The notes under the pieces were generated by a model that was not told the origin of the DNA, made no database searches, and saw only the letters and a list, made by a program, of their open reading frames with translations. From an uncultured delta proteobacterium (lineage in GTDB: Bacteria; Desulfobacterota; WTBG01; JAGOGO01), in assembly GCA_963736755.1 (NCBI GenBank), contig CAVTQE010000023.1, forward strand, positions 9,822 through 73,821: a DNA stretch of 64,000 nt. Direction: 5' to 3'. The first letter of the stretch is position 1; each line of letters starts with the position of its first letter. Made by a program: the position numbers and the translations under genes. Shown in pieces: positions 30,901 to 63,328 of the stretch.

Positions 30901-31085
30901 AAGATTTAAGTTTTAAGATTAAAGTGTTAAGGGTTAAGCTCCTGGTTCGTAGTTCATGGTTCGTCGCTATCAGCTAGGAGCTATCAGCCAAGAGCTATGA
31001 GCAATGATCTAACAACTTAAAACTTAACCCTTTTAACTTATTTACTTTTCACATTTCACGTTACTTCACGTTTCACGGAGTATTT
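30901..31085. repeat. Word-hairpin block (T, S, T-complement, H words) between divergent purL and purN-like genes
   Basis: aagatttaagttttaagattaaagtgttaagggttaag / ggttcgtagttcatggttcgt / gctatcagctaggagctatcagccaagagctatgagc / acttaaaacttaaccc / ttcacatttcacgttacttcacgtttcacg. Confidence 0.7.
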
Positions 31086-31870: not shown

Positions 31871-31965
31871 GTATTTAAGGGTTAAGTTTTAAGTCTTTAA
31901 GCTTACCTTAAGCTTAACCTTAACTTAACCTTAACCCTTAAACCTTTAAACTTAAACTTTCAACT
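31871..31965. repeat. Word-hairpin block (T words), about 30-bp imperfect stem between purN-like and purM
   Basis: 31875-31902 ttaagggttaagttttaagtctttaagc pairs with 31908-31941 ttaagcttaaccttaacttaaccttaacccttaa. Confidence 0.8.
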
Positions 31966-31968
31966 TTA

Positions 31969-47814: not shown

Positions 47815-48190
47815 GTGCAAACTGAAATTGTTTCTGACTGGGCTCGAAAGACCTTGCACGCCATTATCCGCGGTAAAGTGGAGCCTGAAAGCATTATTCA
47901 CTCCGATACCCGGCGCGGTTACAGTAAATTGGTTGACTTGGGATACAAAAAACATTACCGTGTCCGCCATGGCAATGACCAGTCTGCCAATGGTAAGCGG
48001 CATATTAACGGCATCGAGTCTTTTTGGTCTTATTCAAAACGCAACCACATGAAATTACATTGAAAACAATGATCAATCTTTTATCTTCACCTCAAAGACT
48101 GGGAGTTCGGACGCAATTAGGGAAACCAAAATATTTACCAAGTACTTCTAAAAAACCTGAGGGAAAAAGCCATCAATGAGTCAAGACATT
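47815..48190 (+). pseudogene. 3' remnant of an IS1595-family (ISXO2-like) transposase
   Basis: ...IIHSDTRRGYSKLVDLGYKKHYRVRHGNDQSANGKRHINGIESFWSYSKR...; continues with stops and frameshifts as ...HLKDWEFGRN...YQVLLKNL. Confidence 0.7.
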
Positions 48191-50082: not shown

Positions 50083-50140
50083 ACAGATGCTGATTGATCT
50101 TTCTAAAATAAAGAAAAAAAGTTAAAATTTTAGTCATAAA

Positions 50141-50174
50141 AGAAAGGAGGCCTTTGCCTCCTTTCTTTTATTTT
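50141..50174 (+). terminator. Rho-independent terminator after the OMP gene
   Basis: agaaaggaggc / cttt / gcctcctttct, followed by tttatttt. Confidence 0.8.
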
Positions 50175-50210
50175 ATTCTCTGATACAATGTTCAATTACC
50201 ATTTGAGTTT

Positions 50211-50264
50211 ATGGAAAATGCTAATAGGATGTTACGTGGTCTCATTAAGTCATTGAAGAACTAA
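50211..50264 (+). pseudogene. 3' remnant of a four-helix-bundle (23S rRNA IVS protein family) gene
   Basis: MENANRMLRGLIKSLKN* compared with the end of 61842-62201 (...MQDVDRMLSGLIKSLKK*). The nucleotide similarity continues into the following ttcacttttcac words. Confidence 0.7.
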
Positions 50265-50392
50265 CTTTTCACTTTTCACGATTCACTTTTTACGCTTCAC
50301 GCTTTACGGTTTTTTTTAACGTTTAACTTTTCACTTTTACGTTTTACATTTCACGTTTTACTTTTTACTATTTCAAACAGAAGGACTTTGCC
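50265..50392. repeat. Word block (H words, single polarity)
   Basis: cttttcacttttcacgattcactttttacgcttcacgctttacgg...cgtttaacttttcacttttacgttttacatttcacgttttac. Confidence 0.7.
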
Positions 50393-51359
50393 ATGAGGTT
50401 AAAAAGAATCATTATCACCCGGTCGTGCTTCCTTCTGCTTTTTTTGGCTCTGCTTCTCCTTCAGGCCTGTTCCTATCCAACCACACCCCGGATCAAAAAA
50501 ACAGCACCAGCACCTGAAGGGCCATCAGCCAGCACTCCTCCGGAACAAAGCATTGGGAAAATTTTTCAAAAAAACGCTCCGGTACTTGTTTCCCAGCCGG
50601 AACGCAAAGAAAAAGAATATGAAATCGGTCCGGAAGATAGGCTGGAGATTAGGGTATGGGACCAGGAAGATCTCACGCGGGAAGTGTACGTGTCCCGGGA
50701 AGGAGTTTTTTCCTATCCTCTTATCGGCACGGTTCAGGCAGGTGGCCTCAGCGTGGAACAGCTCGAAAAAGAAATTGCTGACCGGCTCTCCAGAAAATAC
50801 ATCGTCAATCCCCAGGTTACGGTTACGGTAAAAGAGTTTAAGAGCAAAAAAGTCCTGGTGCTCGGCGAAGTCGGAGTCCCCGGAACTATATCCGTTAACC
50901 GGGAAGACCACCCTTTTGGAAATACTCACGAAAACCGGTGGCCCAACCACAAATGCCGGGATTGAGATAACCGTCATGCGGCCCCGGAAGACCCCCAACG
51001 CTCCTGGCTCTCAGGAAAGGTCAGCGAACAATGAGGTGATAAAAATAAATTTAAAAAGGCTTTTAGAAGGCGATACCTCCCAAAATATTTATCTCGAGCC
51101 GAACGATACGGTGTATTTTTCTAAAACTGGATTTTATTACGTGTACGGCGAGGTAAAATCTCCCGGGAGATACAACCTGGAAATGGGCACCACTGTACTG
51201 AAGGCGATCACCACTGCCGGCGGAGTAACGGAAAAGGCAGCAGTCAACCGGACCAAGGTAGTGCGGGAAAAAGCAGGACAAAAATCAGAGATGCGCGTCA
51301 AACTGACTGACCCGGTTGAACCAGAAGATATTATCGTGGTTCCGGAAAGCTTTTTCTGA
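50393..51359 (+). CDS. Polysaccharide export outer-membrane lipoprotein (Wza family), one frame break near 50905
   Basis: Lipobox LLLQAC, YEIGPEDRLEIRVW...PLIGTVQAGGLSVEQLEKEIADRL..., then YPLTGKTTLLEILTKTGG... (SLBB) in the second frame. Confidence 0.85.
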
Positions 51360-51401
51360 AAAGAAAAGGGTTAATAAGGAAATGCGTTAATAAGTAAATG
51401 G

Positions 51402-51812
51402 GTGGAGGGGATGAAACAACCGATAGTAGTAAAAAGCTTTGAGGACTTATACGTTTATAGCCTATCACGGGCTTTCAGCAAGAAGGTTAGTGAGTTAATA
51501 AAATTGTTGCCACAACATGAAGAATACAACCTGAAAAGCCAGATGCGACGGGCAAAACTTTCAGTTACAAATAATATAGCAGAGGGATATGGAAGATATC
51601 ATTATCAAGAAAATATCCAGTTTTGTAGACAGGCAAGAGGGTCTATTTATGAATTGATAGATGATTTTAATGAATGCGCTGATGAAGGATACCTTGATCA
51701 AAAAATGCTAACCGATTACAAAGAAGCCGGTTATTATTTGTTGAAAGTTTTAAATAAATATATCAGTTCCCTGAAAAAACTAAAGCAAGCAACTAAAGAA
51801 TTAACTCATTGA
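51402..51812 (+). CDS. Four-helix-bundle protein, 23S rRNA intervening-sequence protein / Avd-like family (copy 1)
   Basis: ...QMRRAKLSVTNNIAEGYGRYHYQENIQFCRQARGSIYEL... Probably starts at ATG 51411. Flanked by an inverted repeat (51386-51403 / 51823-51848). Confidence 0.85.
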   Translation: MEGMKQPIVVKSFEDLYVYSLSRAFSKKVSELIKLLPQHEEYNLKSQMRRAKLSVTNNIAEGYGRYHYQENIQFCRQARGSIYELIDDFNECADEGYLDQKMLTDYKEAGYYLLKVLNKYISSLKKLKQATKELTH

Positions 51813-51856
51813 CTCATTATTTACCCATTTACTTATTTACTTATTAACTTATTTCT

Positions 51857-54070
51857 GTGCATAGGCAGGATGTCATGGCTGAGAATTTTTTTGGAGAAGA
51901 AATCAATTTAAGAGATTACCTGAGAGTTCTTTTTAAAAGACGGTGGTTGATCGCCGCCGTTCTGCTCATCGTGGTCGTAAGCGTAACCATAGAGACATTC
52001 CGGAAGACTCCGATCTATCGGGCAACCGCTCAGGTTATGATTGAAAGCGAAAATCCCAAGGTGGTTGATATTCAAGAAGTTCTTCAAAGCAACCAGGAGT
52101 ATTCCGACTATTATCAAAGCCAATACGAGATTTTAAAAAGCAAAGCTCTGGCCTTGAAGGTAATCAACTATTTAAACTTAAATGAAAATCCTGTGGTTGG
52201 CGGTTCTAAAAAGGGCTTCAGTCCGGGCGCGGTTTTCCATGGAATGATAGGATGGCTTAAAAACCTTACCTCTTCGGCTGAGGCAAAACCCGATCCCCAG
52301 CTGGAGGAAGACCAACGAAATAACTCCCTGATAGCGGCTTACCTGGGCAGCTTGAGGGTGGAGCCGATAAAAAACAGCCGCCTGGTCAATATAAGTGTCG
52401 AAGGTATAGACCCCAAAATGGTAGCCAGGATCGCCAATACCCATGCTCAGCTTTACATCGAGAGCAACATCGAAAGAAAATTTGCTGCCGCTCAGGCAGC
52501 CGTGAGCTGGCTTAACCAGAGAATAAAAGAAGAAGGAAAGAAACTTCAGCAAAGCGAAGAATCTCTGCAGACCTACCGGGAACAAGAAGGTTTGATTGAT
52601 ATTGATTTTCAAGAACGACAGGGCATCATCATGCAGAGCCTTAATGACTTAAATACCGCGTTAACCGAAGCCCAGACTGAAAAAATAACAAAGCAGCAGC
52701 TCTCCTCAGCCTCGGGTCTGGATGAATCACATCCCGCGGTCATGCAGAACTCTTTAATCCAGGCACTCAAGGCAAACTATATCGCCCTTTCCGGAGAGTA
52801 CTCCAAGCTTTCCCAGAAATACGGCCCGGAACATCCCAACATGGTGAGACTCTCATCGGAAATGCAGGCGATACAAGGAAAAATTGCCCAGGAAATCAGG
52901 AAACTCGCCCAAAGCATGCACACCGATTCCCAATTAGCGTCAGACAAAGAAAAAGCCATTCTTGCCGCCATGGAAGCAAAGAAAAAAGAAGCCCTTGCCC
53001 TCAATCAGAAACAGATTAAATACGATGCATTAAAACGTGAAGTCAGCATCACCCGCTCCTTGTTTGAATCTTTGCTCAAGCGGGCCAAGGAAGCTTCGGT
53101 TACCGAAGGGTTAAACGTAACCAATATTGTTGTCGTTGATCCTGCCCGCTTGCCCGATACGCCTTTTAAACCCCAAAAAGCTCGCGATATTCTTTTCGCT
53201 CTGATCATCGGCCTTACCCTTGGCATCGGATTAGCCTTTTTGCTTGAATACCTGGATAACACCATCAAAATTCCGGAAGAGGTGGAACGCTATCTAAAAA
53301 TACCGCTCTTAGGTCTCGTGGGAAGTTTTCCAACTAACTCGACTGACCTCAAAAAGAATGAACTTATTTCTCATACGAACCCAAAGTCGACTATCTCGGA
53401 GGCCTATCGAACTATCCGGACAAACCTCCTTTTTTCTTCTCCGGATAATAAAAAACAAGTGCTTCTGGTAACCTCGATGCTCCCTTTCGAAGGCAAGACT
53501 GTCCTGTGCTCAAATCTTGCCATCACCTTTGCCAAAATGGGGAAAAAGGTACTTTTAGTGGATGCGGATATGAGGAAACCAAAAATTTATAAAGTGTTTA
53601 ATCTTGATCGAGTCAAAGGATTATCCGCGTTCCTCGTGGGCGAGGAATCTTCGATCGTAATTACGGACATTCCCGGCCTCAAAATTTTAACCTCCGGCAC
53701 CCTCCCGCCCAATCCCTCTGAACTTTTAAGTTCAAAAAAAATGCAAGATTTCATTGAGCGGGCCAGGGAACAATACGACCTCATTCTCTTTGACTCTCCG
53801 CCCATCCTTTCGGTCACTGACGCAGTCATTCTATCCACTCTTGCCGATGGGGTGGTAGTGACAATCAAGGCTTCCGATACCCCGCGACCAGCCATTAAGC
53901 AGGGACTCCAGCAGCTTTCCGAGGTGGGCGGCAAAGTGCTGGGTTGCGTTTTAAATGCTGTGGATTTTGAAAAGGAAAGCTACTACCATTCCCCCTACCG
54001 GTATCATCATCATTATTATTATCACGCGTATGGAGAAGAGGAAAAAAAAGATTTAAGATTTAAGGGTTAA
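51857..54070 (+). CDS. Polysaccharide co-polymerase / tyrosine autokinase (Wzc/GumC-type)
   Basis: N-terminal Wzz domain, coiled coil, second TM, Walker A SMLPFEGKT, DADMRKP, C-terminal Tyr/His cluster YYHSPYRYHHHYYYHAY. Confidence 0.9.
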   Translation: MHRQDVMAENFFGEEINLRDYLRVLFKRRWLIAAVLLIVVVSVTIETFRKTPIYRATAQVMIESENPKVVDIQEVLQSNQEYSDYYQSQYEILKSKALALKVINYLNLNENPVVGGSKKGFSPGAVFHGMIGWLKNLTSSAEAKPDPQLEEDQRNNSLIAAYLGSLRVEPIKNSRLVNISVEGIDPKMVARIANTHAQLYIESNIERKFAAAQAAVSWLNQRIKEEGKKLQQSEESLQTYREQEGLIDIDFQERQGIIMQSLNDLNTALTEAQTEKITKQQLSSASGLDESHPAVMQNSLIQALKANYIALSGEYSKLSQKYGPEHPNMVRLSSEMQAIQGKIAQEIRKLAQSMHTDSQLASDKEKAILAAMEAKKKEALALNQKQIKYDALKREVSITRSLFESLLKRAKEASVTEGLNVTNIVVVDPARLPDTPFKPQKARDILFALIIGLTLGIGLAFLLEYLDNTIKIPEEVERYLKIPLLGLVGSFPTNSTDLKKNELISHTNPKSTISEAYRTIRTNLLFSSPDNKKQVLLVTSMLPFEGKTVLCSNLAITFAKMGKKVLLVDADMRKPKIYKVFNLDRVKGLSAFLVGEESSIVITDIPGLKILTSGTLPPNPSELLSSKKMQDFIERAREQYDLILFDSPPILSVTDAVILSTLADGVVVTIKASDTPRPAIKQGLQQLSEVGGKVLGCVLNAVDFEKESYYHSPYRYHHHYYYHAYGEEEKKDLRFKG

Positions 54071-54261
54071 GTTTTAAGGGTCTAAGGAACTTAAAGCTTC
54101 AGAACTTCGATACTTATGGCTGCCTTGCAACATATTGAGAATTATTAGCTTTTAACGGTTTACGGTCTTTTGATCTTAACCCTTTGACTCCTTTATCCTT
54201 TACGGTTCGACTTTGATCCTTAACCTTATCCTTAAACCTTAACCCTTAACTCTTTATTATC
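54071..54261. repeat. Word-hairpin block (T words and complements)
   Basis: gttttaagggtctaaggaacttaaagc...gatcttaaccctttgactcc...gatccttaaccttatccttaaaccttaacccttaac. Confidence 0.7.
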
Positions 54262-55229
54262 ATGATTGACCTTCACGCGCATATCCTTCCTGACCTTGAT
54301 GATGGGGCAAAAGACTGGCAGGAGACCCTTGATATGTGCGCCATTGCCTTGAATGACGGCATCCACACCATCGTGGCCACCCCCCATGTGAAACGAGGAA
54401 TGTACACCCCGGCCAAAAAACTTATCTTATCCAAGGTCGCCGAACTCAACCACCGCCTGCTCCATGCTCCGCTTACGCCTCCCGTCGTGTAAAACGTGAA
54501 ACGTAGAGATGTAACTCCTCACGCTTCACGCCCCGCGCCTCCCCGTCAAACGTAAAAAGTAAAACGTTAGAAGTAACTCCTCACGTTTCACAGTTCACGT
54601 TTCACGGATTAACAATTGTGCCCGGCGCTGACAACGCTTTTGAGCCGGATATCCTCGACCAATTAGAACAGGGAACTGCTTTGTATCTTGCCCACCCCAC
54701 CAACGCTATAAACGCACCAAACGCAATTAACGCGAATAACCCAACTACCCGTGAAATGCGAAGCATATTTCACCGGGACCCCACAAACCCTATAAACCCA
54801 ACCCTCCGCTACGTGCTCCTGGAGTTGTCCGATTATTTTCTTTTTCCTCAGGTGAAAGACCTCATCCGGAAACTCCGCGAAAAAAACATCGTGCCTGTCC
54901 TCAGCCACCCGGAAAGAATTGCCATGATCCAGAAAAATCACCAGCTCCTTCAGGCCTTCATTCAAGCCGGCGCTCTTTCCCAGGTAACCGCGATGAGCAT
55001 CACCGGTGAATTCGGAAAAGAAATTAAAAAACTTACCCGAACCCTGGTAAAGAAAAATCTGGCGCATGTTATCGCCTCTGATTCCCACTCAAAAGACCGC
55101 AGGCCGCCGATACTTTCACAAGCAGTCTCGGAGGTCGCTGACCTTATCGGCAGCGATAAAGCGGAACTGATGGTCCAGGGGATACCCCAGGCGATCATTG
55201 AAGGTAAGGAAATAAGATTAGATGATTAG
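54262..55229 (+). CDS. PHP-family protein-tyrosine phosphatase (CpsB/YwqE type), split by a 137-nt word-hairpin insertion and carrying a second in-frame insertion
   Basis: MIDLHAHILPDLDDG...TPH... (54262-54468), then GLTIVPGADN...SHPER...ASDSHS (54606-55229) in another frame. Confidence 0.8.
54469..54605 (+). repeat. Word-hairpin insertion inside the phosphatase CDS (two tandem units)
   Basis: Stops in all three frames (taa 54490, tga 54497, tag 54504). Contains the core gtcaaacgtaaaaagtaaaacgttagaagtaactcctcacg. Confidence 0.8.
54691..54808 (+). repeat. In-frame low-complexity insertion in the phosphatase CDS
   Basis: ccaccaacgctataaacgcaccaaacgcaattaacgcgaataaccc ... hairpin gtgaaat/atttcac ... 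ccacaaaccctataaacccaaccctcc. Confidence 0.65.
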
Positions 55230-55297
55230 AGGATTGGAAGGTTGGAAGGTTAGGGAATTAGATAATTAGATGGTTAGAAGATTGGATGGTTAGAGGG
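55217..55297. repeat. Word block (G words) overlapping the phosphatase stop
   Basis: gattagatgattagaggattggaaggttggaaggttagggaattagataattagatggttagaagattggatggttagaggg. Confidence 0.7.
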
Positions 55298-55299
55298 AA

Positions 55300-55665
55300 A
55301 TGGGGAAAAATTTTTATAGAGACCTGTTAGTCTGGCAAAAGAGTGTATCCTTGATAAAAGAGGTTTACGCTGAAGCTGACAAATTGCCAAAATCAGAGGA
55401 ATATAATCTGAAGCAGCAACTTAAAAGAGCAGTTGTTTCTGTTTCGTTAAATATTGCTGAAGGGAAAAATCGAAGATCCCCAAAAGATTTTATTAATTTC
55501 CTTAATATCTCAAATGGTTCTTTAGCGGAGACAGAAGCGATTTTATTGATATGCGGGGAACTTGGGTTTTTGCGTATTCCGGAAGATTTACTTTCCCATA
55601 TAGAAGAACTGGCAAAAATGATCAACAGCCTGATTGCCAACATAAGGGGGAAATTAGAAGGTTAG
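55300..55665 (+). CDS. Four-helix-bundle protein, 23S rRNA IVS protein / Avd-like family (copy 2)
   Basis: ...QLKRAVVSVSLNIAEGKNRRSPKDFINFLNISNGSLAETEA... Confidence 0.85.
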   Translation: MGKNFYRDLLVWQKSVSLIKEVYAEADKLPKSEEYNLKQQLKRAVVSVSLNIAEGKNRRSPKDFINFLNISNGSLAETEAILLICGELGFLRIPEDLLSHIEELAKMINSLIANIRGKLEG

Positions 55666-55904
55666 AGGATTAGAGGATTGGAGGGTTAGAAGATTGGAAA
55701 GTTGGATGATTAGAGGGTTAGGAGGAGACTAACTTGCAAACATCCCAACATCTAAACTTCTAATCTTCTATCGCGTCCAAACATCCAAACCTCTAAACCT
55801 CCAACCCTCTGAAGTTGCTAATCCGTCTAAAACTCTAAACATCGGGTCTTTGCCCTTAACCTTAACACTAAAACTTAACACTTAATTACTTAAATCTTAA
55901 CCCA
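55651..55904. repeat. Word-hairpin block: G words, then complementary words, then T words
   Basis: 55651-55728 ttagaaggttagaggattagaggattggagggttagaag... versus 55742-55830 acatcccaacatctaaacttctaatcttc...cctctaaacctccaaccctc; then cttaaccttaacactaaaacttaac. Confidence 0.7.
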
Positions 55905-58119
55905 ATGAACACGATTATTGAGTATGGCCTTATTTTCCTGATTATTTTTACCCCGCTCGCCTTTGGCTCAGTCCATGTCTGGGCATATACCATCGTGGAA
56001 GTTGTTGTCCTTCTTCTTCTTTTGATTTGGCTGTTAAAACATTTTACTTTTCACGATTCACGTTTCACGTCTTCACTTTTCACGTTTCACTTTTCACGCA
56101 TTCACCCGTACTTTCACATTTCACTCTTTACGTTTTACGATCCCCTTTTCCCTCTTCCTGGGCCTGATCCTTTTCCAGATGGTTCCAATACCTGCGACAG
56201 TAATAAAACACCTGTCCCCCAATACCTATGATCTCTACCAGCAAACCATCGGAAATCCGTTAAACGTAAAAAGTAAAACGTTAAATGTTACTACGTCCCT
56301 CGCTGATAGCTCATTGCCGATAGCAAAACCCATGAGCCACGAGCTATCACATTTCACGTCCTATGATCCATTTACACAAACGCCACCAAAACCGAATTTC
56401 TCAAATTCTTTGCCTACTTCTCCGTATTTTTTCTCATCATCACGACCATGACCACCACGCGTCAGATACGACGAATAGTACTGACGATTATTTTCACCGG
56501 AACCGGCGTTGCATTTTTAGCGCTCTGCCAGATACTCAGCAAGTCAGATAAAATCTACGGGTTCTGGCAGTCTCAGCAGGCTCTGCACAAGATCGGAATC
56601 TACGGCGGTCAGATCGGAAAGATCGGAAGCTACGGCGGTCCTTTTATCAATCCCAATCACCTGGCCGGCTACCTGGAGATGGTTATCCCTCTCGCGCTCG
56701 GGTTTTTGCTCAGCCGCGAGGTACCGGGCATCATTCGTTCGGCAAAAAACTGGAAACGACGGCTTTCCCTGCTTGAATCCTGGCTTGCGAAAAATACCCT
56801 CCTTATCTTCATTATCGTCCTGATGGCATCAGCGGTCTTTATTTCTGCCTCGCGGGGCGGGATTATTTCTTTTATTTTTTCTTTAGGGTTATTTTCCCTG
56901 CTGCTCGGAGTGCGAAGATACCACAAGGGAAAAAGAAAGATGGTGCTGCTTATCACCGGATTAATATTCATTTTTCTTCTGTGGATGGGCATTGGCCCGG
57001 TAGTCACCGAACTCGCTACCCTCGCCGATCCCAAGACCTCCGGCTTAGTGGTACGGCTCCAGGTATCGAAAGATACCCTTGCCCTGGCACGGGACTTTCC
57101 CCTCTTCGGGGTCGGGCTGGGTAATTTTCAAACTCTCTATCCTAAATATCAAACATTTATCTACCCCTTCTTCTGGGACCACGCTCATAATGATTACGTG
57201 GAAATGCTCGCCGATACCGGCTGGATGGGGCTGCTCTTATTTTTTGGTGGAATCTGGTTGGTGCTTTTCGCCATCATCAAAACGTGGAAGCAAAGGCGAG
57301 ACCCATTTCTGGCGGACATAACCCTCGGTGGTTTTATCGGCGCAGTGTCTCTTCTGTGCCATTGCCTGGTAGATTTTAACCTCCACATTCCTGCCAATGC
57401 CTTTCTCCTTTTTGTGATCCTGGGACTGATGGTCGCTGCGGTTAATATCAAAAAAAAGGGAGAAGAAGATTTTTCTTTCCTTCCAATCCGCGCCGTTTCT
57501 TTCTCGCCCAAAACAAGAACTGCGCTGATCATGGCAAAAGCCCTCATAATAGTGTTCCTGCTTACCCTGGTGATGAAAGATTATCTGGCGTATCATTTTT
57601 TTAGTAACTACCAATCCCTCAAGCCGAGCGAGTTCTCACTCGCCGCCTCCCTCGTTAAACGTAAAAAGTAAAACGTTAGAAGTAACTCCTCACAGTTCAC
57701 GTTTCACGTTTCACGTTTTACTCACCCGGGCCATCTTTTTTGATTCGGGTAATGCACCGTATCATTATGAGCTGGGTAATTATTATGCCCGCAAGATGAG
57801 CGAATCCTGGAAACGGGGAACCTCGAACATACCAGGAGAACAATGGGTCTTTGACGCTGAAAAAAATGCCCGATTTTTTGGACTTAAGGCTTTACAGGCG
57901 TATGCTGATGCGGTAAACTTGTCTCCGGCCAATGCCTGGTATCATTTTTATCTAGGATGGACCCTGAGCGAATTAAAGCGGTTTTCGGATTTCTCCCAAC
58001 ATCCGATCCCGCTTGCGGAACCTTTTGACGCGGAAACAGAATTTTCCCGGGCCCTCATGCTCGATCCAAACAATGAAAATATTAAAAAATATATAACGGC
58101 CGTAAAACCTGGAGGTTAA
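55905..58119 (+). CDS. O-antigen-ligase-like (Wzy_C) membrane protein with C-terminal TPR-like tail, interrupted three times by word-hairpin insertions
   Basis: ORFs 55905-56231, 56179-56451, 56448-57671 and 57796-58119 are colinear. Core ...FWDHAHNDYVEMLADTGWMG... Confidence 0.75.
56038..56140 (+). repeat. H-word insertion 1 inside the ligase CDS
   Basis: attttacttttcacgattcacgtttcacgtcttcacttttcacgtttcacttttcacgc...; no stop in frames 0 and 1. Host frame changes from 0 to 1. Confidence 0.75.
56254..56366 (+). repeat. Word insertion 2 inside the ligase CDS (core element plus S-complement words)
   Basis: gttaaacgtaaaaagtaaaacgttaaatgttac...gctgatagctcattgccgatagc...catgagccacgagctatcac. Host frame changes from 1 to 0. 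Confidence 0.75.
57654..57725 (+). repeat. Word-hairpin insertion 3 inside the ligase CDS
   Basis: gttaaacgtaaaaagtaaaacgttagaagtaactcctcacagttcacgtttcacgtttcacg; about 90% identical to 54545-54607. Confidence 0.8.
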
Positions 58120-58127
58120 AGAAAAAA

Positions 58128-58240
58128 GTTTTAAGGGTTAAGATTTAAGGGTTAAAGAACTTAAAACTTAATTACTTAAATCTTGTGTTTTTCACTTTTT
58201 ACGTTTCACGGTTAACCGTTTACGGCGTTTCACTTGGAAA
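58128..58240. repeat. Word-hairpin block (T then H words)
   Basis: gttttaagggttaagatttaagggttaaagaacttaaaacttaattacttaaatctt...ttcactttttacgtttcacgg. Confidence 0.7.
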
Positions 58241-58246
58241 GGCTTT

Positions 58247-59380
58247 TTGATGTGGAAATTTTTTCTAACCTTTTTTATTACTTACGGCACGATGCACTCC
58301 TTGTTTTACCACCGCGTGCGCGTGCTTCTGCCTGACCAGCGCTGGATTCACGGCCTGGTCATAGTCCTCCTGGTGCTGCTGGTTATCGTTCCGGTGAGCA
58401 GTATTTTCCTGGACAGGAGCGGTCATGCCGAATCAGCGCGACTGGCGGCGCTCATCGGCTTCAGCTGGATGGGGTTTCTTTTCTTCGCGTCGATTCTGGC
58501 TGTCGGCATGGATATTTTGGATATCCTTTCCTGGACAGGAAGGAGAATCTTCGCCCGGGATCTTCCCACACTGTGGGGAAAAGGGCCAGCGATAATAATG
58601 CTGGCATCAGCGCTTCTTATCTGTGTTTACGGAGTTTTCGACGCACGTCGTATCCGCGTGGAGCGAATAACCGTCGCGACGGACAAACTGCCGGCGGGGG
58701 CGCAGCGCCTGCGAATTGCCCAGATCTCCGACGTGCATATAGGCCTGCTCATCGGAAAGCCCCTTCTCAGCACTATTATCGGGATTCTCAACCGGGAGCA
58801 GCCTCAGATCGTGGTCTGCACCGGTGACCTGCTCGACAGCTCCGGTCATATCGATGGGCTTTCACCCCTCCTTAAGCAAATACAGCCCCGATACGGCAAA
58901 TATGCCGTTATCGGTAACCACGAGTGCTACCTTGGCCTTGCCCGTTCGCTGGCGTTTCTCGACCAAGCCGGGTTCAGGGTGGTTCGCAACCAGGTAATGA
59001 CCAATGGGGGAATCATCAACATTGCCGGGGTCGATGACCCCGCGGCGGGAATCAAAACGGACGAGGTCGCCCTGCTCTCCTCCATACCGAACAAACTCTT
59101 CACCCTGTTTCTCAAACATCAGCCAAACGTGCCAACAGAAACGCACGGGCTTTTTGATCTCCAACTGTCCGGTCACACCCATAAGGGCCAGCTGTTTCCT
59201 TTCGGCTATGTGGTTTCCCTTTCTTATCACTACCTGGCGGGATTCTATCCTTTAAGCAAAGGATCATCGCTTTACACCAGCCGCGGCACCGGCACCTGGG
59301 GCCCTTCCATGAGAGTGCTGTCACCGCCGGAAGTCACCATCATCGATGTGGAGAGCAGCCGAGCTGTTCGTAAAAAGTAA
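58247..59380 (+). CDS. Membrane-anchored metallophosphoesterase (calcineurin-like)
   Basis: N-terminal TM helices; ISDVHIG, CTGDLLD, GNHE, GVDD, SGHTHKGQ motifs. Confidence 0.85.
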   Translation: MMWKFFLTFFITYGTMHSLFYHRVRVLLPDQRWIHGLVIVLLVLLVIVPVSSIFLDRSGHAESARLAALIGFSWMGFLFFASILAVGMDILDILSWTGRRIFARDLPTLWGKGPAIIMLASALLICVYGVFDARRIRVERITVATDKLPAGAQRLRIAQISDVHIGLLIGKPLLSTIIGILNREQPQIVVCTGDLLDSSGHIDGLSPLLKQIQPRYGKYAVIGNHECYLGLARSLAFLDQAGFRVVRNQVMTNGGIINIAGVDDPAAGIKTDEVALLSSIPNKLFTLFLKHQPNVPTETHGLFDLQLSGHTHKGQLFPFGYVVSLSYHYLAGFYPLSKGSSLYTSRGTGTWGPSMRVLSPPEVTIIDVESSRAVRKK

Positions 59381-59504
59381 AGCACGAGGCGAAAGGAGTA
59401 AAGAGTTAGGTGTTAAATACCGTAAATCGTAAAGGGTAAACAGTAAAAGGTTAAAGGTTAAAAGTAAACAGTAAAAACTAAAGACTGATACCAAAAAGTG
59501 AAAG
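59381..59504. repeat. Word block (cgtaaa/gtaaac words) 5' of four-helix copy 3
   Basis: ccgtaaatcgtaaagggtaaacagtaaaaggttaaaggttaaaagtaaacagtaaaaac...aaaaagtgaaag. Its complement words follow the gene at 59862-59935. Confidence 0.7.
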
Positions 59505-59861
59505 ATGGATTCAAGACAACATAGAAAATTAGACGTCTGGAAAAGGTCAATGGAGTATGTAAGAGAAATTTATAAGCTTACTGAGTCTTTCCCAAAATCA
59601 GAGGCCTATGGCCTGACTTCCCAGATGAGGAGATCATCTATATCTATCCCGAGCAATCTGGCAGAGGGAGCTGCACGCAAAGGTACAAAGGAATTCAGTC
59701 AATTTTTAAATATCGCTCAGGGGTCTATCAGTGAGCTTGACACTCAAATAGAGCTGGCTTTTATGCTGAATTATATTGATAAGCAAAGTTATGAAGATCT
59801 GATGGAAAAGTTAAAAGCAATATCTAAAATGTTGTTCGGCTTGTCAAGGTCACTAAAATGA
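59505..59861 (+). CDS. Four-helix-bundle protein, 23S rRNA IVS protein / Avd-like family (copy 3)
   Basis: ...QMRRSSISIPSNLAEGAARKGTKEFSQFLNIAQGSISELDTQ... Confidence 0.85.
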   Translation: MDSRQHRKLDVWKRSMEYVREIYKLTESFPKSEAYGLTSQMRRSSISIPSNLAEGAARKGTKEFSQFLNIAQGSISELDTQIELAFMLNYIDKQSYEDLMEKLKAISKMLFGLSRSLK

Positions 59862-59935
59862 CAACTGATAAAAGTTAATTTTCACTTTTCACTTTTCACT
59901 TTTTACGCTTAACGACAAAATAAAGGAAAAAGATT
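59862..59935. repeat. Word block (H words) 3' of four-helix copy 3
   Basis: gttaattttcacttttcacttttcactttttacgcttaacg...gattcgaggcacgaag. Confidence 0.7.
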
Positions 59936-60000
59936 CGAGGCACGAAGATCGGGGATAAATTTACCGAAAACAATAAAATTTAAAACGGGAAGATGATCAC

Positions 60001-60546
60001 ATGGATATAGTCAAGCTTGAAAAAGTCGAAAACAAAATCATTGAAATAAGAGGTCAAAAGGTTTTGCTGGATGCTGATGTTGCAGAAATTTACGGTGTTG
60101 AGACGCGAGATATCAATAAAGCCGTGACAAATAATCCGGATAAATTTCCTGAGGAATATGTTGTTGAACTCTCAAAATCTGAAAAAAGAGAACTGGTGGA
60201 AAATTTCCACCGGTTCAATAAGCTAAAGCATTCTACGGTAAATCCTAAAGCATTTCCTGAAAAGGGCTTGTATATGCTTGCTACCATACTCAAAAGCGAA
60301 AAAGCAACTTCGACAACTATCGCTATCATTGAGACTTTTGCCAAGATAAAAAACCTGTCAAACAATATCAAGGAGCTGTCAAAAAGCCGGCATGATAAAC
60401 AAAGGCAAAATCTTCTTCAGAAAAGCGGAGACATTATTTCCGATATACTCTATGACGATTTAGTCACAAATGAAAGTGAGACAAGCTTCGAGATAAACTT
60501 TGCGGTGTTGAAATTCAAGCACACCATCAAAAAAAGTAAAAAATGA
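60001..60546 (+). CDS. ORF6N-domain (KilA-N-related) DNA-binding protein
   Basis: KIIEIRGQKVLLDADVAEIYGVETRDINKAVTNNPDKFPEEYVVELS... Confidence 0.8.
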   Translation: MDIVKLEKVENKIIEIRGQKVLLDADVAEIYGVETRDINKAVTNNPDKFPEEYVVELSKSEKRELVENFHRFNKLKHSTVNPKAFPEKGLYMLATILKSEKATSTTIAIIETFAKIKNLSNNIKELSKSRHDKQRQNLLQKSGDIISDILYDDLVTNESETSFEINFAVLKFKHTIKKSKK

Positions 60547-60612
60547 ATATCCGAGGAACGAGAATTAAGGGTTAAGGGGCAAGGTTAAAGGCGTGAGGAA
60601 GAGGGAAAAAGA
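60547..60612. repeat. Word block 5' of four-helix copy 4
   Basis: cgaggaacgagaattaagggttaaggggcaaggttaaaggcgtgagg. An approximate complement lies at 61112-61150. Confidence 0.6.
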
Positions 60613-61023
60613 ATGAAACTTACTCGTTTTGAAGACCTCGACTGCTGGCAGGAAGCCAGAAAATTAGTGAAAAGTGTCTATGGAGTAACGAGGGGCGACT
60701 CATTCAAAAAAGACCTTCGGCTCTGCGGACAGATTCAGGCAGCAAGTTCTTCGGTGATGGCAAATATAAGTGAGGGGTTTGTAAGAAGGTCGAACAAAGA
60801 ATTTACTCAATTCTTGTTTATTGCCATGTCATCTTCTGCTGAAGTTCAGAGCCACCTTTATAGCGCCTTAGACCAGGGGTACATCAATCAAGCGCAGTTT
60901 GATGACATTTACAACCAAGCCACGAAAACAGCGAAGATTATATCTGGGCTCATTACTTATTTGAGAAATAACGAGAAACAATATAAACTCAACAAACCAG
61001 AAAAACAGAAGAAACCAAATTAA
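60613..61023 (+). CDS. Four-helix-bundle protein, 23S rRNA IVS protein / Avd-like family (copy 4)
   Basis: ...QIQAASSSVMANISEGFVRRSNKEFTQFLFIAMSSSAEVQS... Confidence 0.85.
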   Translation: MKLTRFEDLDCWQEARKLVKSVYGVTRGDSFKKDLRLCGQIQAASSSVMANISEGFVRRSNKEFTQFLFIAMSSSAEVQSHLYSALDQGYINQAQFDDIYNQATKTAKIISGLITYLRNNEKQYKLNKPEKQKKPN

Positions 61024-61111
61024 CCAAAGAGACTAAAGAAACCAGAGAAACCAGATAAACCAGATAAACCAGATAAACCAGAGAAACCAAATAAACCAGA
61101 GAAACCAAACA
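61022..61111 (+). repeat. 9-nt tandem repeat (aaccagaga/aaccagata), about 10 units, starting at the stop codon of copy 4
   Basis: Eight clean units at 61040-61111 plus two degenerate units. In frame with the ORF they would read KPEKPDKPDKPDKPEKPNKPEKPNK. Confidence 0.85.
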
Positions 61112-61233
61112 AACGTTTCACGTTTTACTTTAACCCTTTATCCTTTTAATTATTCACTCATTCACTTATTTACTTATTTACTTATTAACTTATTAACTCA
61201 TTAACTCATTTACTTTTTAATGTAGTTAAATCT
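61112..61233. repeat. Word block (H, T-complement, L words)
   Basis: acgtttcacgttttactttaaccctttatcc...ttcactcattcacttatttacttatttacttattaacttattaactcattaactcatttac. Confidence 0.7.
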
Positions 61234-61734
61234 ATGGGAAAATCCTGGTTTGTCGTCCACACCAAACCCAGTCAGGAAGAAAACGTGGCCATGCATCTTA
61301 AGCGCAAGGGGATCGAGACCTACCTGCCCAAGATTGAGACCTGCGTTTATAACGGCCTAAAAAAAATTAAAAAGACCAAGTCACTTTTTCCCAATTATCT
61401 TTTTGCCGGGTGCGAAAGAAAAAACATCACTCAGGTCTGCTGGACCAGGGGAGTAAAAAAAGTGCTTTGGGAAAACAACGCTCCCCAGCCCATCAACGAT
61501 GAACTGATTTTCTCACTTAAGTCTTTAACTGGCGATGACGGTTTGATCCGCCCTCCACAATGGGACACGTACCAAAAGCATGATCTGGTTTTGATTACCT
61601 CCGGTCCTTTCAAGGACCTCTACGCCCTCTTTGACCATTGGGAGTCGGATAAGGAGAGGGTCTGTTTACTGCTCAAGCTTTTAAATGCCCAGATCCGGGT
61701 TACTGTGCCAGCGGCTCTCGTGGCAATAGCGTAA
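61234..61734 (+). CDS. NusG-family paralog (RfaH/UpxY-like operon-specific antiterminator)
   Basis: WFVVHTKPSQEENVAMHLKRKGIETYLPKI (NGN domain) and a KOW-like C-terminus (DLVLITSGPFKDLYALF). Confidence 0.8.
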   Translation: MGKSWFVVHTKPSQEENVAMHLKRKGIETYLPKIETCVYNGLKKIKKTKSLFPNYLFAGCERKNITQVCWTRGVKKVLWENNAPQPINDELIFSLKSLTGDDGLIRPPQWDTYQKHDLVLITSGPFKDLYALFDHWESDKERVCLLLKLLNAQIRVTVPAALVAIA

Positions 61735-61841
61735 CGGCGCCATGCGCCGGATATCGTGAATCGTAAGGCGTGAAAAGTGAGGAGCAACATTTAACGTTTT
61801 ACATTTTACGTTTTACGTTTTACGTCTAACGGAGTTTAGGG
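61735..61841. repeat. Word-hairpin block containing an inverted copy of the core element
   Basis: cgtgaatcgtaaggcgtgaaaagtgaggagcaacatttaacgttttacattttacgttttacgttttacg. Confidence 0.7.
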
Positions 61842-62201
61842 ATGTTAAACAAACCTCATAAAAAACTGGATGTATGGAAAAAGGCAATCGATTTGGTGCA
61901 GCAGATATATGATCTGACAAAAACTTTCCCGAAAAATGAAGATTACAGCCTAACCAGCCAAATGAGAAGAGCTGCGATATCAGTACCCTCTAACATAGCG
62001 GAAGGAGCAGCGCGGCAAACCAAAAAAGAATTCATGCAATTTCTTCATATGGCACAAGGTTCGCTGAGCGAATTGGATACACAGATAGAAATAGCAAAAA
62101 GATTAGGATATTTCAGTGAGGATCAAACCAAAAAAATATTCGAGATTATGCAAGATGTTGATAGGATGTTAAGTGGTCTCATTAAGTCATTAAAGAAATA
62201 A
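61842..62201 (+). CDS. Four-helix-bundle protein, 23S rRNA IVS protein / Avd-like family (copy 5)
   Basis: ...QMRRAAISVPSNIAEGAARQTKKEFMQFLHMAQGSLSELDTQ... Confidence 0.85.
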   Translation: MLNKPHKKLDVWKKAIDLVQQIYDLTKTFPKNEDYSLTSQMRRAAISVPSNIAEGAARQTKKEFMQFLHMAQGSLSELDTQIEIAKRLGYFSEDQTKKIFEIMQDVDRMLSGLIKSLKK

Positions 62202-62300
62202 CTTTTCACTTTTCACTTTTCACGTTTTACGTTTTACGGTTTTTAACGCTTTTCACATTTTACTAATTTACTTTTCACTTTTTAACTTATTAACCCTTTT
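62202..62300. repeat. Word block (H and L words)
   Basis: cttttcacttttcacttttcacgttttacgttttacgg...cttttcacattttactaatttacttttcactttttaacttattaaccc. Confidence 0.7.
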
Positions 62301-62399
62301 TTTAACAAATTCATTTACAACTCCTGAAGGTTTTTTACAAACCTGACCGGGCGGAGCCTGCCCCGCGCCTTACAACAAAAGAAAGAAACAAGATTCGAG

Positions 62400-62482
62400 G
62401 CACAAGGAACGAGAATAATCGTAAAAAGTAAACAGTAAAAGGTAAACAGTAAAAACTAAAGACTGATACCAAAAAGTAAAAG
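62400..62482. repeat. Word block 5' of four-helix copy 6 (paralogous to 59441-59504)
   Basis: cgtaaaaagtaaacagtaaaaggtaaacagtaaaaactaaagactgataccaaaaagtaaaag. Confidence 0.75.
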
Positions 62483-62637
62483 ATGGATTCGAGACAACAT
62501 AGAAAATTAGACGTCTGGAAAAGGTCAATGGAGTACGTAAGAGAAATTTATGAGCTTACCGAGTCTTTCCCCAAATCAGAGGTCTATGGTTTGCGCTCGC
62601 AAATGCGTCGAACGGTTGTATCAATACCCAGCAATCT

Positions 62638-62924
62638 TCACCCTGTTAAATAGCTTGAAGTAAGAATGCATTATTATACATATGTCCTACAAAGCATGAA
62701 TGATATGAATTTCTATACAGGGTATACAAAAAACCTCAAACTAAGATTTGAGCACCACAATAAAGGCCTTGTTGAGTCGACAAAAGACAGAAGACCATTC
62801 AAATTGATTTATTATGAAGCATGTCTGAATCAGAATGATGCAATAAAACGAGAAAAGTATTTAAAAACATACCATGGTAAGATGTTTTTGTATAAAAGGC
62901 TCAAATCTTATTTAACCGGGTAAA
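62638..62924 (+). mobile_element. 287-nt insertion carrying a GIY-YIG nuclease ORF, bounded by 12-nt imperfect terminal inverted repeats
   Basis: ccctgttaaata (62641-62652) versus tatttaaccggg (62909-62920), 11/12 complementary. It replaces 4 nt (g gca) of the NLAEG motif. Confidence 0.75.
62666..62923 (+). CDS. Small GIY-YIG nuclease family protein
   Basis: YYTYVLQS...FYTGYTKNLKLRFEHHNKG...FKLIYYEAC...AIKREKYLK (GIY...YIG, conserved Arg and Glu); 85 aa. Confidence 0.9.
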   Translation: MHYYTYVLQSMNDMNFYTGYTKNLKLRFEHHNKGLVESTKDRRPFKLIYYEACLNQNDAIKREKYLKTYHGKMFLYKRLKSYLTG

Positions 62925-63189
62925 GAAGGTTCCGGCAGTACCTCAAAGAAAGAATTTATACAATTTCTTAATATCGCAAGGCGATCAACCTTCGAAAATG
63001 CAAATATGATTATCGTGTTTGAGAAACGGAGTCTAATAATGTGAGTTAAGAGACGAGCTATTGATTAGACCTTGAGCAGGAGTTCGGATGCACACTAATT
63101 TTATAAAAGCTGTTACGGGAAAACTAACCCCTTGCTCCGTGATCACTGACAGCTGGGAAAAGGGCTCATTCCAAGCTCCATGCTCCATG

Positions 63190-63328
63190 CCCCATGCTTT
63201 TTAACGTTTACGTTTCACGTTTTACATTTAACGTTTCACGTTTCACTTTTCACGTTTCACTTTTCACGGTCTTTTCACCTTTCACTTTTCACGGTCTTTT
63301 CACCTTTCACTTTTTTCGGAGCTAACCC
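63190..63328. repeat. Word block (H words, single polarity)
   Basis: aacgtttacgtttcacgttttacatttaacgtttcacgtttcacttttcacgtttcacttttcacggtcttttcacctttcacttttcacgg... Confidence 0.7.

Follow-up and report, generated by a model that had tools for sequence, protein, structure and literature searches.

A 64,000-nt stretch of DNA from an uncultured delta proteobacterium (contig CAVTQE010000023.1, positions 9,822 to 73,821), hereafter called the window, carries an operon for extracellular polysaccharide (EPS) in which small genes encoding four-helix-bundle (4HB) proteins of the PF05635/TIGR02436 family lie singly between the EPS genes, each flanked by arrays of short tandem words. Together with their relatives in other genomes, these genes appear to represent a widespread gene cassette, seemingly undescribed, that links several old puzzles. 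Few small proteins of unknown function are commoner in environmental bacteria than those of PF05635/TIGR02436, and the origin and purpose of the intervening sequences (IVSs) of rRNA have been open questions since about 1990.

Five intact 4HB open reading frames (ORFs) were found on the + strand at positions 51402-51812, 55300-55665, 59505-59861, 60613-61023, and 61842-62201 (copies 1 to 5). All five scored above the cut-offs of Pfam PF05635 (89.5-145.3 bits, cut-off 33.8 bits; E-values of 2e-25, 6e-33, 1.5e-42, 2.3e-30, and 8.5e-43 for copies 1 to 5, respectively) and of TIGR02436 (87-140 bits, cut-off 24 bits; E 7e-25 for copy 1), and residues N51, E54, G55, R58, F67, S74, and E77 were invariant across their alignment. 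A profile built from these five copies was then run in six frames over the whole window. It detected a disrupted copy 6, also on the + strand, as an N-terminal half at 62483-62650 (match 62480-62650, profile positions 1-52, E 1e-21) and a truncated C-terminal part at 62916-63041 (profile positions 54-83, E 1.2e-5), as well as a 3' remnant, copy 7, at 50184-50264 on the + strand (match 50184-50261, profile positions 100-119, E 0.055). At the DNA level, the remnant gains support from positions 50201-50367, which are 79% identical to 62138-62292, the 3' end and flank of copy 5 (E 2.5e-32). No convincing further copy was found by the same scan in positions 1-50 kb. The count of five intact genes, one disrupted copy, and one remnant given by the first-pass annotation, and the motifs N-[IL]-[AS]-E-G and F-x-x-F-L...S-x-x-E that it had noticed, were thus borne out by the Pfam and TIGRFAM profiles, the six-frame scan, the DNA match, and the five-copy alignment. 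For copy 1, the ATG at 51411 is a likelier start than that at 51402.

The proteins of the five intact copies share 32-55% identity, and they are therefore old paralogues that were brought together, and not the product of a recent local amplification. Copies 3 and 6 are closer, with 85.7% DNA identity over 217 nt, from 62 nt before the ATG to the point where a GIY-YIG element interrupts copy 6; the first-pass annotation was right that their shared stretch begins upstream of the gene, but had put the identity at about 90%. The closest solved structure is PDB 2GSC (E 3.7e-33 with copy 5), in which four-helix bundles are described as forming a pentameric toroid (PMC4990558). A PADLOC search returned nothing meaningful for the 4HB proteins.

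Every gene between 50.2 and 63.3 kb lies on the + strand, and domain searches agreed with the previous description of the 4HB genes as single, co-oriented guests between named EPS genes. Neither the spacers from 50.4 to 63.3 kb nor any cassette flank had a predicted intrinsic terminator, and read-through transcription is therefore plausible.

Tandem arrays of 7-9-nt words, called by Tandem Repeats Finder (TRF), flank each cassette on both sides. The six 5' flanks have a purine fraction of 0.73-0.79, except that of copy 5 (0.52), and the downstream flanks, which have pyrimidine words, a purine fraction of 0.36-0.58. The word type differs from cassette to cassette, only copies 3 and 6 sharing one. 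In cassette 1, the 5' arm (51357-51410, +; inverted repeats I1, I3, and I4) is made of GTTAATAAG/GTAAATGGG words and includes the Shine-Dalgarno sequence, and the 3' arm (51813-51861, +) contains ACCCATTTACTTATTTACTTATTAAC. A clean inverted repeat had been noticed around this copy, and it was confirmed as a 31-nt repeat, 84% complementary, between 51373-51403 and 51823-51853. The predicted duplex between its flanks reached -36.8 kcal/mol (z -5.0) and, when the whole cassette was folded (51360-51871), the closing stem was present in both the minimum free energy (MFE) and the centroid structures (z -5.0), with the Shine-Dalgarno sequence inside the stem. Cassette 2 has a 5' array of 8-nt words, GGTTAGAG/GATTGGAA (55209-55299, +; TRF period 8, 9.9 copies; I2 and I17), and 3' arrays (55649-55830, +; I6 and I13) consisting of a sense block at 55649-55726 followed by a complementary block at 55733-55825; its flank duplex was estimated at -56.3 kcal/mol (z -6.3), and its closing stem was again found in the MFE and centroid folds (z -3.2). 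The words of cassette 5 are CGTGAAT, CGTAAGG, and CGTGAAA. Its 5' flank (61747-61826, +; I5, I9, and I10) is a reverse-orientation copy of a mini hairpin of about 70 nt that is described below, its 3' array (62199-62294, +; TRF) is composed of ACTTTTC/TTTTACG heptamers, and a flank duplex of -47.8 kcal/mol (z -2.3) was accompanied by a closing stem in both folds (z -2.05).

In cassette 3, GTAAAAG/GTAAACA heptamers occupy the 5' array (59381-59504, +; TRF 59429-59482), of which the last 62 nt are common to cassette 6, and TTTTCAC, repeated 3.6 times, forms the 3' array (59873-59914, +; TRF). Cassette 6 has GTAAAAA/GTAAACA words upstream (62421-62482, +; TRF), common to cassette 3, and TTTCACG heptamers downstream (63170-63314, +; TRF), directly upstream of the UXS gene. 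Cassette 4 is characterized by AAGGGTTAAGG words and by a (AAACCAGAG)x12 array. Its 5' arm (60552-60612, +) contains AAGGGTTAAGGGGCAAGGTTAAAGG and takes part in inverted repeat I12 (29 nt, 72% complementary), and its 3' arrays (60973-61220, +) start with (AAACCAGAG)x12 and continue with TTTCACG, CTTTAACC, and TTAACTTA words. This nonamer array (60973-61114) begins within copy 4 and encodes its lysine/proline-rich C-terminal tail; no complementary partner was found nearby. The remnant is followed by a pyrimidine-type array of period 7 (50264-50375, +; ACTTTTC-type, 16 copies by TRF). The proposal that each copy is bracketed by word-hairpin blocks was therefore correct as to polar word flanks, present on all six copies that have a 5' flank, whereas pairing beyond composition was clear only for copies 1, 2, and 5 and was weak for copies 3, 4, and 6.

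A scan with one genome per species, of the kind that the first-pass annotation had called for, retrieved two syntenic loci, one in a Thermodesulfobacteriota metagenome-assembled genome (L001, Wzc 80% identical) and one in the complete ORM2a chromosome CP113000 (L002, Wzc 74% identical). The region that they share with the window contains no 4HB gene in either, the sole trace being a 3' remnant at 21577-21705 of L002. The Wza and Wzc genes, separated by 497 nt in the window, where cassette 1 is located, are only 20-30 nt apart in both loci, and cassette 5 is also absent from both. In ORM2a, the tetratricopeptide repeat (TPR) gene is directly followed by the NusG-like gene, whereas the window has a phosphoesterase gene, copy 3, an ORF6N gene, and copy 4 at this place; neither the phosphoesterase gene (58247-59380) nor the ORF6N gene is found in the ORM2a locus. 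A conserved element, CAAACCTGACCRGGCGGAGC, comes about 100 nt after the NusG-like gene in ORM2a and follows cassette 5 in the window. The cassettes are thus presence/absence polymorphisms. The two loci are sisters (Wzc 87% and outer-membrane protein 84% identical), with the window as the outgroup.

Relatives were also collected from metagenomes by a scan with copies 5 and 3, which gave 80 loci with proteins 57-81% identical to copy 5; the sample leans towards the copy-5/copy-3 lineage, the five-copy alignment having been too divergent to serve as a query. Five of the 80 loci had two 4HB copies, and no rRNA was detected with Rfam in 60 related loci. The upstream neighbor was co-oriented with the 4HB gene in 60 of 64 cases and the downstream neighbor in 55 of 70, with median gaps of 58 and 67 nt, respectively. 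To measure flank pairing, the 70 nt before each of 77 4HB genes were paired as RNA with the 70 nt after it and the duplex energy was computed, as also for 286 neighboring genes from the same loci: z was below -3 for 47% of the former and 3.5% of the latter (Mann-Whitney p = 6e-19). Word periodicity and partner ranks were counted in 62 non-redundant loci. Lag-7 identity of the flanks was 0.47, against 0.30 for controls, and the words were strongly polar, with CGTRAR upstream and YTYACG downstream: GTRAR occurred 2.9 times per 70 nt upstream (controls, 0.35) and YTYAC 3.0 times per 70 nt downstream (controls, 0.27), the reverse polarity being rare. At least three GTRAR words were present in the 5' flank of 36 of the 62 4HB loci and of 6 of the 286 neighboring genes. 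Of the 62 loci, 25 had their own 3' flank within the top 10% of partners for the 5' flank, and just six had it as the single best partner, because many loci share the CGTRAR words. Among transition-type mismatches in non-redundant arms, those of the G.U type in the sense RNA outnumbered those of the A.C type by 53 to 28 (expected share 0.53, p = 0.016), and by 15 to 6 when counted by locus (p = 0.04), a modest argument for selection acting on the sense transcript. In one pair of loci, L041 and L039, a one-heptamer difference was mirrored in the two arms, but this is a single anecdote. The median ratio of nonsynonymous to synonymous substitution rates (dN/dS) was 0.076 over 44 pairs, and the 4HB ORFs are thus under strong purifying selection.

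The words were inherited together with the ORF. Relatives of copy 2 from Smithella and other genomes (76-98% identical), which all lie, where examined, in polysaccharide loci, keep the 8-nt word type of copy 2, GGATTAGA/GGTTAGAA upstream and TCTAAnC downstream, at four positions: Wzc->4HB->CpsB, CpsB->4HB->epimerase, Wzc->4HB->CpsB->4HB->epimerase, and UGDH->4HB->epimerase. Seeming overlaps of the 4HB gene with the downstream epimerase gene are due to gene calling that runs through the array. Over 71 cassettes, protein identity was correlated with the 6-mer content of the flanks (Mantel r 0.22 for the 5' and 0.34 for the 3' flank, p = 0.001). The word type therefore follows the 4HB protein lineage and not the host site, and the first-pass view that gene plus flank is the unit holds more strongly than when it was proposed, across genomes and insertion positions.

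Neighbors of the metagenomic relatives were rich in EPS functions. Among 133 immediate neighbors, there were eight Bac_transf, eight CpsB, five GDP-mannose-dehydratase/epimerase types (GDP_Man_Dehyd), four ABC-2 exporters, three or four glycosyltransferases per family, four NusG, three Wzy_C, and three GNVR/Wzc proteins. The order phosphatase->4HB->ligase was found in eight loci (L013, L019, L020, L022, L023, L025, L027, and L089), whose phosphatases are 33-59% identical to that of the window and whose 4HB genes belong to the copy-5 lineage, not to that of copy 2. The order NusG->4HB was found in L014, L075, and L082, and 4HB->NusG in L049. The genes most closely related to copy 5 (78-81% identical) have PIN, ParE, DUF433, and AAA_14 genes around them; a group II intron domain was detected upstream of a PIN gene and of the very closest of these relatives (L010, positions 36-124; Rfam RF00029, 48 bits).

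Cultured examples were drawn from a plasmid collection, in which nearly all matches were cyanobacterial. Three of them form perfect stems of heptamers. A 4HB gene lies between nrdB and nrdA in Nostoc edaphicum, with (GTAGGGA)x8 and (TCCCTAC)x5 arrays (z -8), between parA and parB in Geminocystis (parA->4HB->parB), with AAGGGAA and TTCCCTT words (z -9.8), and in a tra operon of Nostoc C052, with (AGGGAAC)x4 and (GTTCCCT)x7 (z -8.4). In the first of these (L111, plasmid pNe_5) and in a secretion operon on a plasmid of Calothrix PCC 7716 (L112), the 4HB gene is antisense to the operon, unlike in the metagenome sample. On plasmid pPg_01 of Pseudanabaena galeata (L115, 46268-46627), it lies between cas6 and cas4, and the arrays are in direct orientation, (GCTAAAA)x13 upstream and (GCCAAAA)x10 downstream; heptamer arrays are likewise direct on both sides in Gemmatirosa (L116). 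Tandem arrays, mostly of 7-nt words, are thus the most constant hallmark of the cassettes, inverted complementarity being frequent but not universal. The EPS enrichment may reflect a host function, or may indicate that long, often exchanged, antiterminated operons are a permissive habitat, and the par, tra, cas, nrd, and secretion contexts of the cyanobacterial genes favor the latter.

We propose a small promoter-less cassette that carries the 4HB gene as its cargo and ends in 7-9-nt word arrays, the downstream array being, in most members, reverse-complementary to the upstream array. Spacers within long operons, notably surface-polysaccharide operons, would gain, lose, and exchange such cassettes as whole units, and read-through from the promoter of the host operon would transcribe them. 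Once part of a polycistronic RNA, the arrays would pair to form a long imperfect stem around the ORF and bury the Shine-Dalgarno sequence, as in ORF-bearing 23S IVSs, and RNase III, by analogy with IVSs, could cut the cassette RNA out, splitting the operon transcript at that spacer. The 4HB protein, a conserved, pentamer-forming relative of Avd, would most likely bind nucleic acid, possibly its own word arrays. We estimate that there is about an even chance that these are IVS-type cassettes of arrays and ORF, expressed by read-through from operon spacers, with arms that pair in the transcript; RNase III cleavage is then a natural prediction for cassettes 1, 2, and 5. Such cleavage is plausible, as the stems are long enough and the window contains an rnc gene for an RNase III with a double-stranded RNA-binding domain (15737-16552, +; PF14622, E 2.6e-38; PF00035, E 2.6e-20), at the position previously annotated. 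The earlier suggestion that IVS-like cassettes have colonized an mRNA operon is partly supported, by the IVS anatomy, the mRNA setting, and the absence of cassettes from two orthologous loci, but colonization implies a gain, and a loss is just as parsimonious here.

Several observations weigh against this proposal. With the window placed as outgroup to two orthologous loci that are each other's sisters, a single gain is no less parsimonious than a single loss, so that the comparison, while it did find the two nearest loci free of cassettes, does not polarize the change. Flank pairing was no better than expected from composition for copies 3, 4, and 6 (z -1.2, -1.8, and -1.1), as for about half of the metagenome cassettes; moreover, the z-scores rest on mononucleotide shuffles, and the metagenome sample includes some orthologous groups. 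The direct arrays of Pseudanabaena and Gemmatirosa imply that a stem cannot be the universal function of the arrays. The idea of length-matched arms was dropped, as the word counts of the two arms were uncorrelated across loci (rho 0.15), and the asymmetry between G.U and A.C mismatches was absent within the window (13 vs 12). Word hairpins are not exclusive to cassettes, since they also occur without a 4HB gene at 58116-58230, 30900-31080, and 31865-31968. No transposase, integrase, or reverse transcriptase gene was found in the EPS locus. Finally, purifying selection, EPS enrichment, and recurrent positions would also fit a host function.

An unlikely though serious alternative is that the cassettes are transposable elements of the foldback type, in which the arrays would be tandem sub-terminal DNA binding sites, perhaps for the 4HB pentamer, needed for movement only, the RNA stem being incidental and RNase III having no designed role. 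Like foldback transposons, miniature inverted-repeat transposable elements (MITEs), and Rickettsia palindromic elements, the cassettes have inverted ends made of tandem sub-repeats, ORF-less miniatures, and insertions in coding regions, partly in frame. Arrays are their most constant feature, complementarity being found in about half of them; arrays in direct orientation exist (L115 and L116); the word type tracks the protein lineage, as would be expected of cognate binding sites; ORF-less minis of about 70 nt, MITE-like, lie in two coding genes that are intact in ORM2a; the 4HB gene can be antisense to the operon (L111 and L112); and decayed stems would be explained. Unlike such elements, however, the cassettes have no identified transposase, encoded within them or nearby, and no target-site duplication was seen; their cargo is a four-helix bundle of unknown activity, and we know of no catalytic transposase with this fold. 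A mechanism acting on DNA only does not call for the co-orientation seen in 60 of 64 cases, although selection for expression could yield it, the preponderance of G.U mismatches over A.C ones (53 vs 28) suggests selection on the sense RNA, and the IVS precedent is at the RNA level. It is less probable still that the 4HB genes are resident accessory genes, long-standing parts of EPS operons such as RNA-binding regulators acting with a NusG/RfaH-like antiterminator, in the manner of UpxZ, the patchy distribution being due to loss. The strong EPS enrichment among neighbors, the recurrent phosphatase->4HB->ligase and NusG->4HB orders, the confinement of the examined copy-2 relatives to EPS loci, and a dN/dS of about 0.08 would all be expected in that case, and parsimony favors a gain in the window lineage no more than a loss in the ancestor shared by L001 and L002. 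Residency, however, accounts poorly for a single operon with five paralogues 32-55% identical, a remnant, and a disrupted copy, for a phosphatase-ligase spacer that holds different 4HB lineages in different genomes, and for one lineage at four positions. The closest copy-5 relatives lie in toxin-antitoxin islands, the cyanobacterial ones in par, tra, cas, nrd, and secretion operons, and other members of the family inside rRNA, and inverted word arrays that travel along with the gene would be superfluous for a regulator.

Two further explanations are largely excluded. Generic spacer hairpins, similar to the short tandemly repeated repetitive (STRR) or repetitive extragenic palindromic (REP) sequences, could make any small gene between two spacers look bracketed, and word hairpins do occur without a 4HB gene (30900-31080, 31865-31968, 54048-54254, 58116-58230, and in coding regions), STRR hairpins (PMC2670836) and the paired repeats of Geobacter (PMC2700814) being known examples. 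Such a coincidence is nevertheless very improbable, since the arrays are specific to 4HB flanks elsewhere (36/62 vs 6/286 for words, 47% vs 3.5% for complementarity), their polarity, purine-rich upstream and complementary downstream, is that of an insertion in a loop and not of a random spacer, and each window cassette has its own word type. There is next to no probability that the copies are remnants of diversity-generating retroelements (DGRs), that is, Avd genes that lost the reverse transcriptase and the template and variable repeats (TR/VR). The family is homologous to Avd, and near DGRs no Pfam family is commoner than PF05635 (PMC10053308); the family and Avd share a pentameric four-helix-bundle fold, copy 5 alone passes the Pfam bAvd model (43.7 bits, cut-off 40), and copies 2, 3, and 5 match the NCBIfam Avd model weakly. 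These NCBIfam scores (NF033474; 21.7-43.2 bits, the best being that of copy 5) nonetheless fall far below the cut-off of 80 bits, no reverse transcriptase domain was found among the annotated genes at 46-64 kb, a self-BLAST gave no TR/VR-like pair, and there were no phage matches. The only long tandem repeat of the window (42008-42368) lacks adenine-specific mismatches. With no reverse transcriptase and no TR/VR pair, this explanation is effectively refuted for the locus.

Among the closest known counterparts of the proposed cassettes are the ORF-bearing 23S rRNA IVSs of Leptospira and Coxiella burnetii. The IVS of Coxiella has 428 nt, is inserted in helix 45 of the 23S rRNA, and is closed by a 28-bp terminal stem cut by RNase III; its loop contains an S23p (4HB) ORF preceded, before the ATG, by two to three tandem GACAGAT heptamers that vary among strains, and its authors recall an old idea that IVSs are mobile and that the ORF serves this mobility (PMC4990558). 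The window cassettes resemble it in encoding the same PF05635 family, in placing the ORF in the loop of an inverted-repeat stem with heptamers just before the ATG, in being transcribed within a host RNA with no promoter of their own, and in their patchy distribution. Versions that are short and ORF-less are known in both settings, the IVSs of Salmonella being of this kind. A stem like that of an IVS was found for cassettes 1, 2, and 5 and was weak for cassettes 3, 4, and 6. The differences concern the location, which is in mRNA operon spacers with protein-coding flanks throughout and no 23S rRNA, whereas IVSs sit within 23S rRNA at helix 25 or 45; the arms, which are long low-complexity word arrays and not a unique 28-bp stem; and the number, with up to seven cassettes in the operon. 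The window protein is under purifying selection, whereas that of Coxiella is decaying and probably untranslated, and RNase III cleavage, demonstrated for the IVS, is only predicted for the cassettes.

Other known systems share single ingredients. The cyanobacterial STRR sequences are 7-bp repeats of unknown function that can form hairpins in the spacers of an operon, as between hupS and hupL in filamentous cyanobacteria (PMC2670836). The 'empty' hairpins of the window, and the arrays around cyanobacterial 4HB genes (L111, L113, and L114), are similar to them, and the window itself has arrays of period 7-9 and hairpins of this type at 54048-54254, 55653-55825, 58116-58179, and 61755-61826. In the searchable literature, however, STRR sequences are neither linked to a 4HB gene nor described as cassette ends, and the window lineage is related to Thermodesulfobacteriota and not to cyanobacteria. 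In Geobacter metallireducens, Aklujkar et al. (2009) described pairs of tandem hepta-, octa-, and nonanucleotides (three to five repeats) on opposite strands, at a variable distance, between or within genes, for example, between proB and proA, and named them 'global regulator sites' (PMC2700814). According to the published description, these pairs differ from the cassettes in being read as DNA sites of unknown regulators, in having no associated ORF family, and in their words. Integron cassettes are likewise promoter-less, co-oriented single ORFs with imperfect palindromic ends and an upstream host promoter. The window cassettes, in contrast, are dispersed among conserved operon genes shared with L001 and L002 and are not stacked, and the palindrome halves flank their ORF on both sides, whereas the integron attC is single and at the 3' end; no integrase or attI was found among the annotated genes at 46-64 kb, where attC core sites were not searched for. 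We found no description of 4HB genes in operon-embedded cassettes in the literature, and none of the papers on STRR, Geobacter, or IVS sequences links its repeats to them. The first-pass statement that no such system is described thus stands for the combination, but its ingredients (IVS, STRR hairpins, and Geobacter paired repeats) are each known.

These comparisons suggest that the rRNA IVS is one habitat of a larger cassette family, the usual home of which is in the spacers of long operons, above all EPS operons. The heptamer hairpins known from cyanobacteria and Geobacter may represent ends of these cassettes or footprints left by them. By way of RNase III, the cassettes could break up or insulate operon mRNAs. 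A more speculative and rather doubtful synthesis would make the 4HB gene with its lineage-specific heptamer arrays an autonomous, phylum-spanning operon cassette, with the 23S IVS as a stray habitat, STRR hairpins as ORF-less footprints, and Geobacter repeats as a local variant; the pentamer would recognize its own arrays, the arms would program RNase III cuts of EPS transcripts, and a GIY-YIG homing element would parasitize the cassette. For annotation, gene callers extend ORFs through the arrays, giving false overlaps and N-terminal extensions, and mini elements split real genes.

The mini hairpins, of which the window has at least four copies, consist of GTAAAA words, the loop TAGAAGTAACTCC, and TTTCACG words. 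One copy of about 70 nt (54536-54606, +) lies inside the phosphatase gene, which it splits, and a second one (57644-57715, +), 92% identical to the first, splits the ligase-TPR gene. A partial copy was found at 56258-56292 and a reverse copy at 61755-61817, directly upstream of copy 5; the 5' flank of cassette 5 is 81% identical to 54544-54606 and 57653-57715 on the opposite strand. The orthologues of both split genes are single ORFs in ORM2a, encoding a phosphatase of 264 aa without the mini hairpin and a ligase-TPR protein of 723 aa. An 'empty' word hairpin occupies the spacer between the Wzc and phosphatase genes (54048-54254, +; I8, 25 nt, 92% complementary, 150 nt apart). Outside the EPS locus, a gene of purine biosynthesis is bordered by the hairpins at 30900-31080 and 31865-31968, which are built from TAAGATT/TTAAGGG words with the complementary words; the latter hairpin lies between genes of this pathway. 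Hypervariable linkers in the coding regions of the phosphatase and ligase genes also hold word arrays (54480-54740 and 56040-56140 in the window, 10424-10585 in L001, and 12470-12530 in L002); these are wholly unlike one another in the three loci and are translated in frame in ORM2a and apparently in L001. A role of the arrays as simple intrinsic terminators was considered and rejected, the terminator scan having found no terminator-like hairpin in the flanks. Rfam reported only one tRNA in the window, with no rRNA and no known RNA family in the arrays.

The element that interrupts copy 6, about 290 bp long (62635-62926, +), splits the gene exactly at the N-L-A-E-G codons, a feature absent from the first-pass annotation. 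It is delimited by 18-nt terminal inverted repeats (62635-62652 and 62909-62926, I23; CCCTGTTAAATA...TATTTAACNGGG) and contains an 85-aa ORF (62666-62923) with a GIY-YIG domain (PF01541, E 2.2e-15). Homologues of this protein number over 5,000 at E <= 1e-10; identity to it is 78-93% among the best 120 of those listed, eight of which were called as fusions of GIY-YIG with PF05635. The element is also nested in 4HB genes in L090 (3980-4265) and L093 (3975-4262) and abuts 4HB genes in L091 (3975-4262) and L092, and all four of these other contexts that were inspected are EPS/exosortase loci. A domain ORF that recurrently interrupts one gene, with defined ends, is typical of homing elements and, judging from its sequence contexts, this candidate looks like a dedicated homing-type parasite of 4HB genes. 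The EPS/exosortase loci that bear it also hold, between their biosynthetic genes, PDDEXK_3, MNT/HepT pairs, and AAA_14-DUF4143 genes (L090, 726-1109, 2648-3281, 4843-5880, and 6143-6460; L091, 7080-7457), and small 'guest' genes in polysaccharide loci may thus form a group wider than the 4HB family.

The host genes of the window, all on the + strand, start with one for a PEP-CTERM/EpsL-like outer-membrane protein (48814-50082), which an intrinsic-terminator-like hairpin (50136-50171, 16 bp followed by a T run) parts from the 4HB remnant and from Wza/EpsE (50393-51359). The latter appears to be frameshifted, consisting of overlapping ORFs in different frames (50393-50965 and 50916-51359), the halves of which share one frame in L001; this state is either that of a frameshift pseudogene or a sequencing error. 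Downstream lie the genes for Wzc (51857-54070), the CpsB-type phosphatase (54262-55229, split), an O-antigen-ligase-like protein with a TPR tail (55905-58119, in three pieces), and the metallophosphoesterase (58247-59380), followed by the ORF6N gene (60001-60546), the gene for an RfaH/UpxY-like NusG paralogue (61234-61734; PF02357, E 7e-17; TIGR01955, E 3.9e-26, under its cut-off), and UXS (from 63330). The split phosphatase and ligase genes, together with the state of Wza, suggest that the EPS locus may be decaying; the damage may correspond to a decaying locus that gathers selfish DNA, to tolerated splits, or to sequencing errors. The product of the ORF6N gene, which lies between copies 3 and 4, has a match to PDC-S05, a candidate defense family of PADLOC (E 1.5e-81). 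A fragment of an IS1595-family transposase gene (47815-48063) lies just upstream of the EPS locus, and a 188-bp tandem duplication (42008-42368, 81% identical, with mismatches that are not adenine-specific) falls within a coding region of the GC-rich segment at 42-46 kb.

The conserved element CAAACCTGACCRGGCGGAGC, located 3' of the NusG-like gene at about 62325-62365 in the window and about 18345-18385 in L002, resembles the ops/JUMPstart element and may be a candidate loading site of the RfaH-like factor. The ops-like sequence GGCGGAGCCTG near 62345 escaped a search with the ops/JUMPstart pattern, from which it differs by a deletion. In L075, an exact GGCGGTAGCCTG was found at the equivalent place, in the 5' flank of its 4HB gene.

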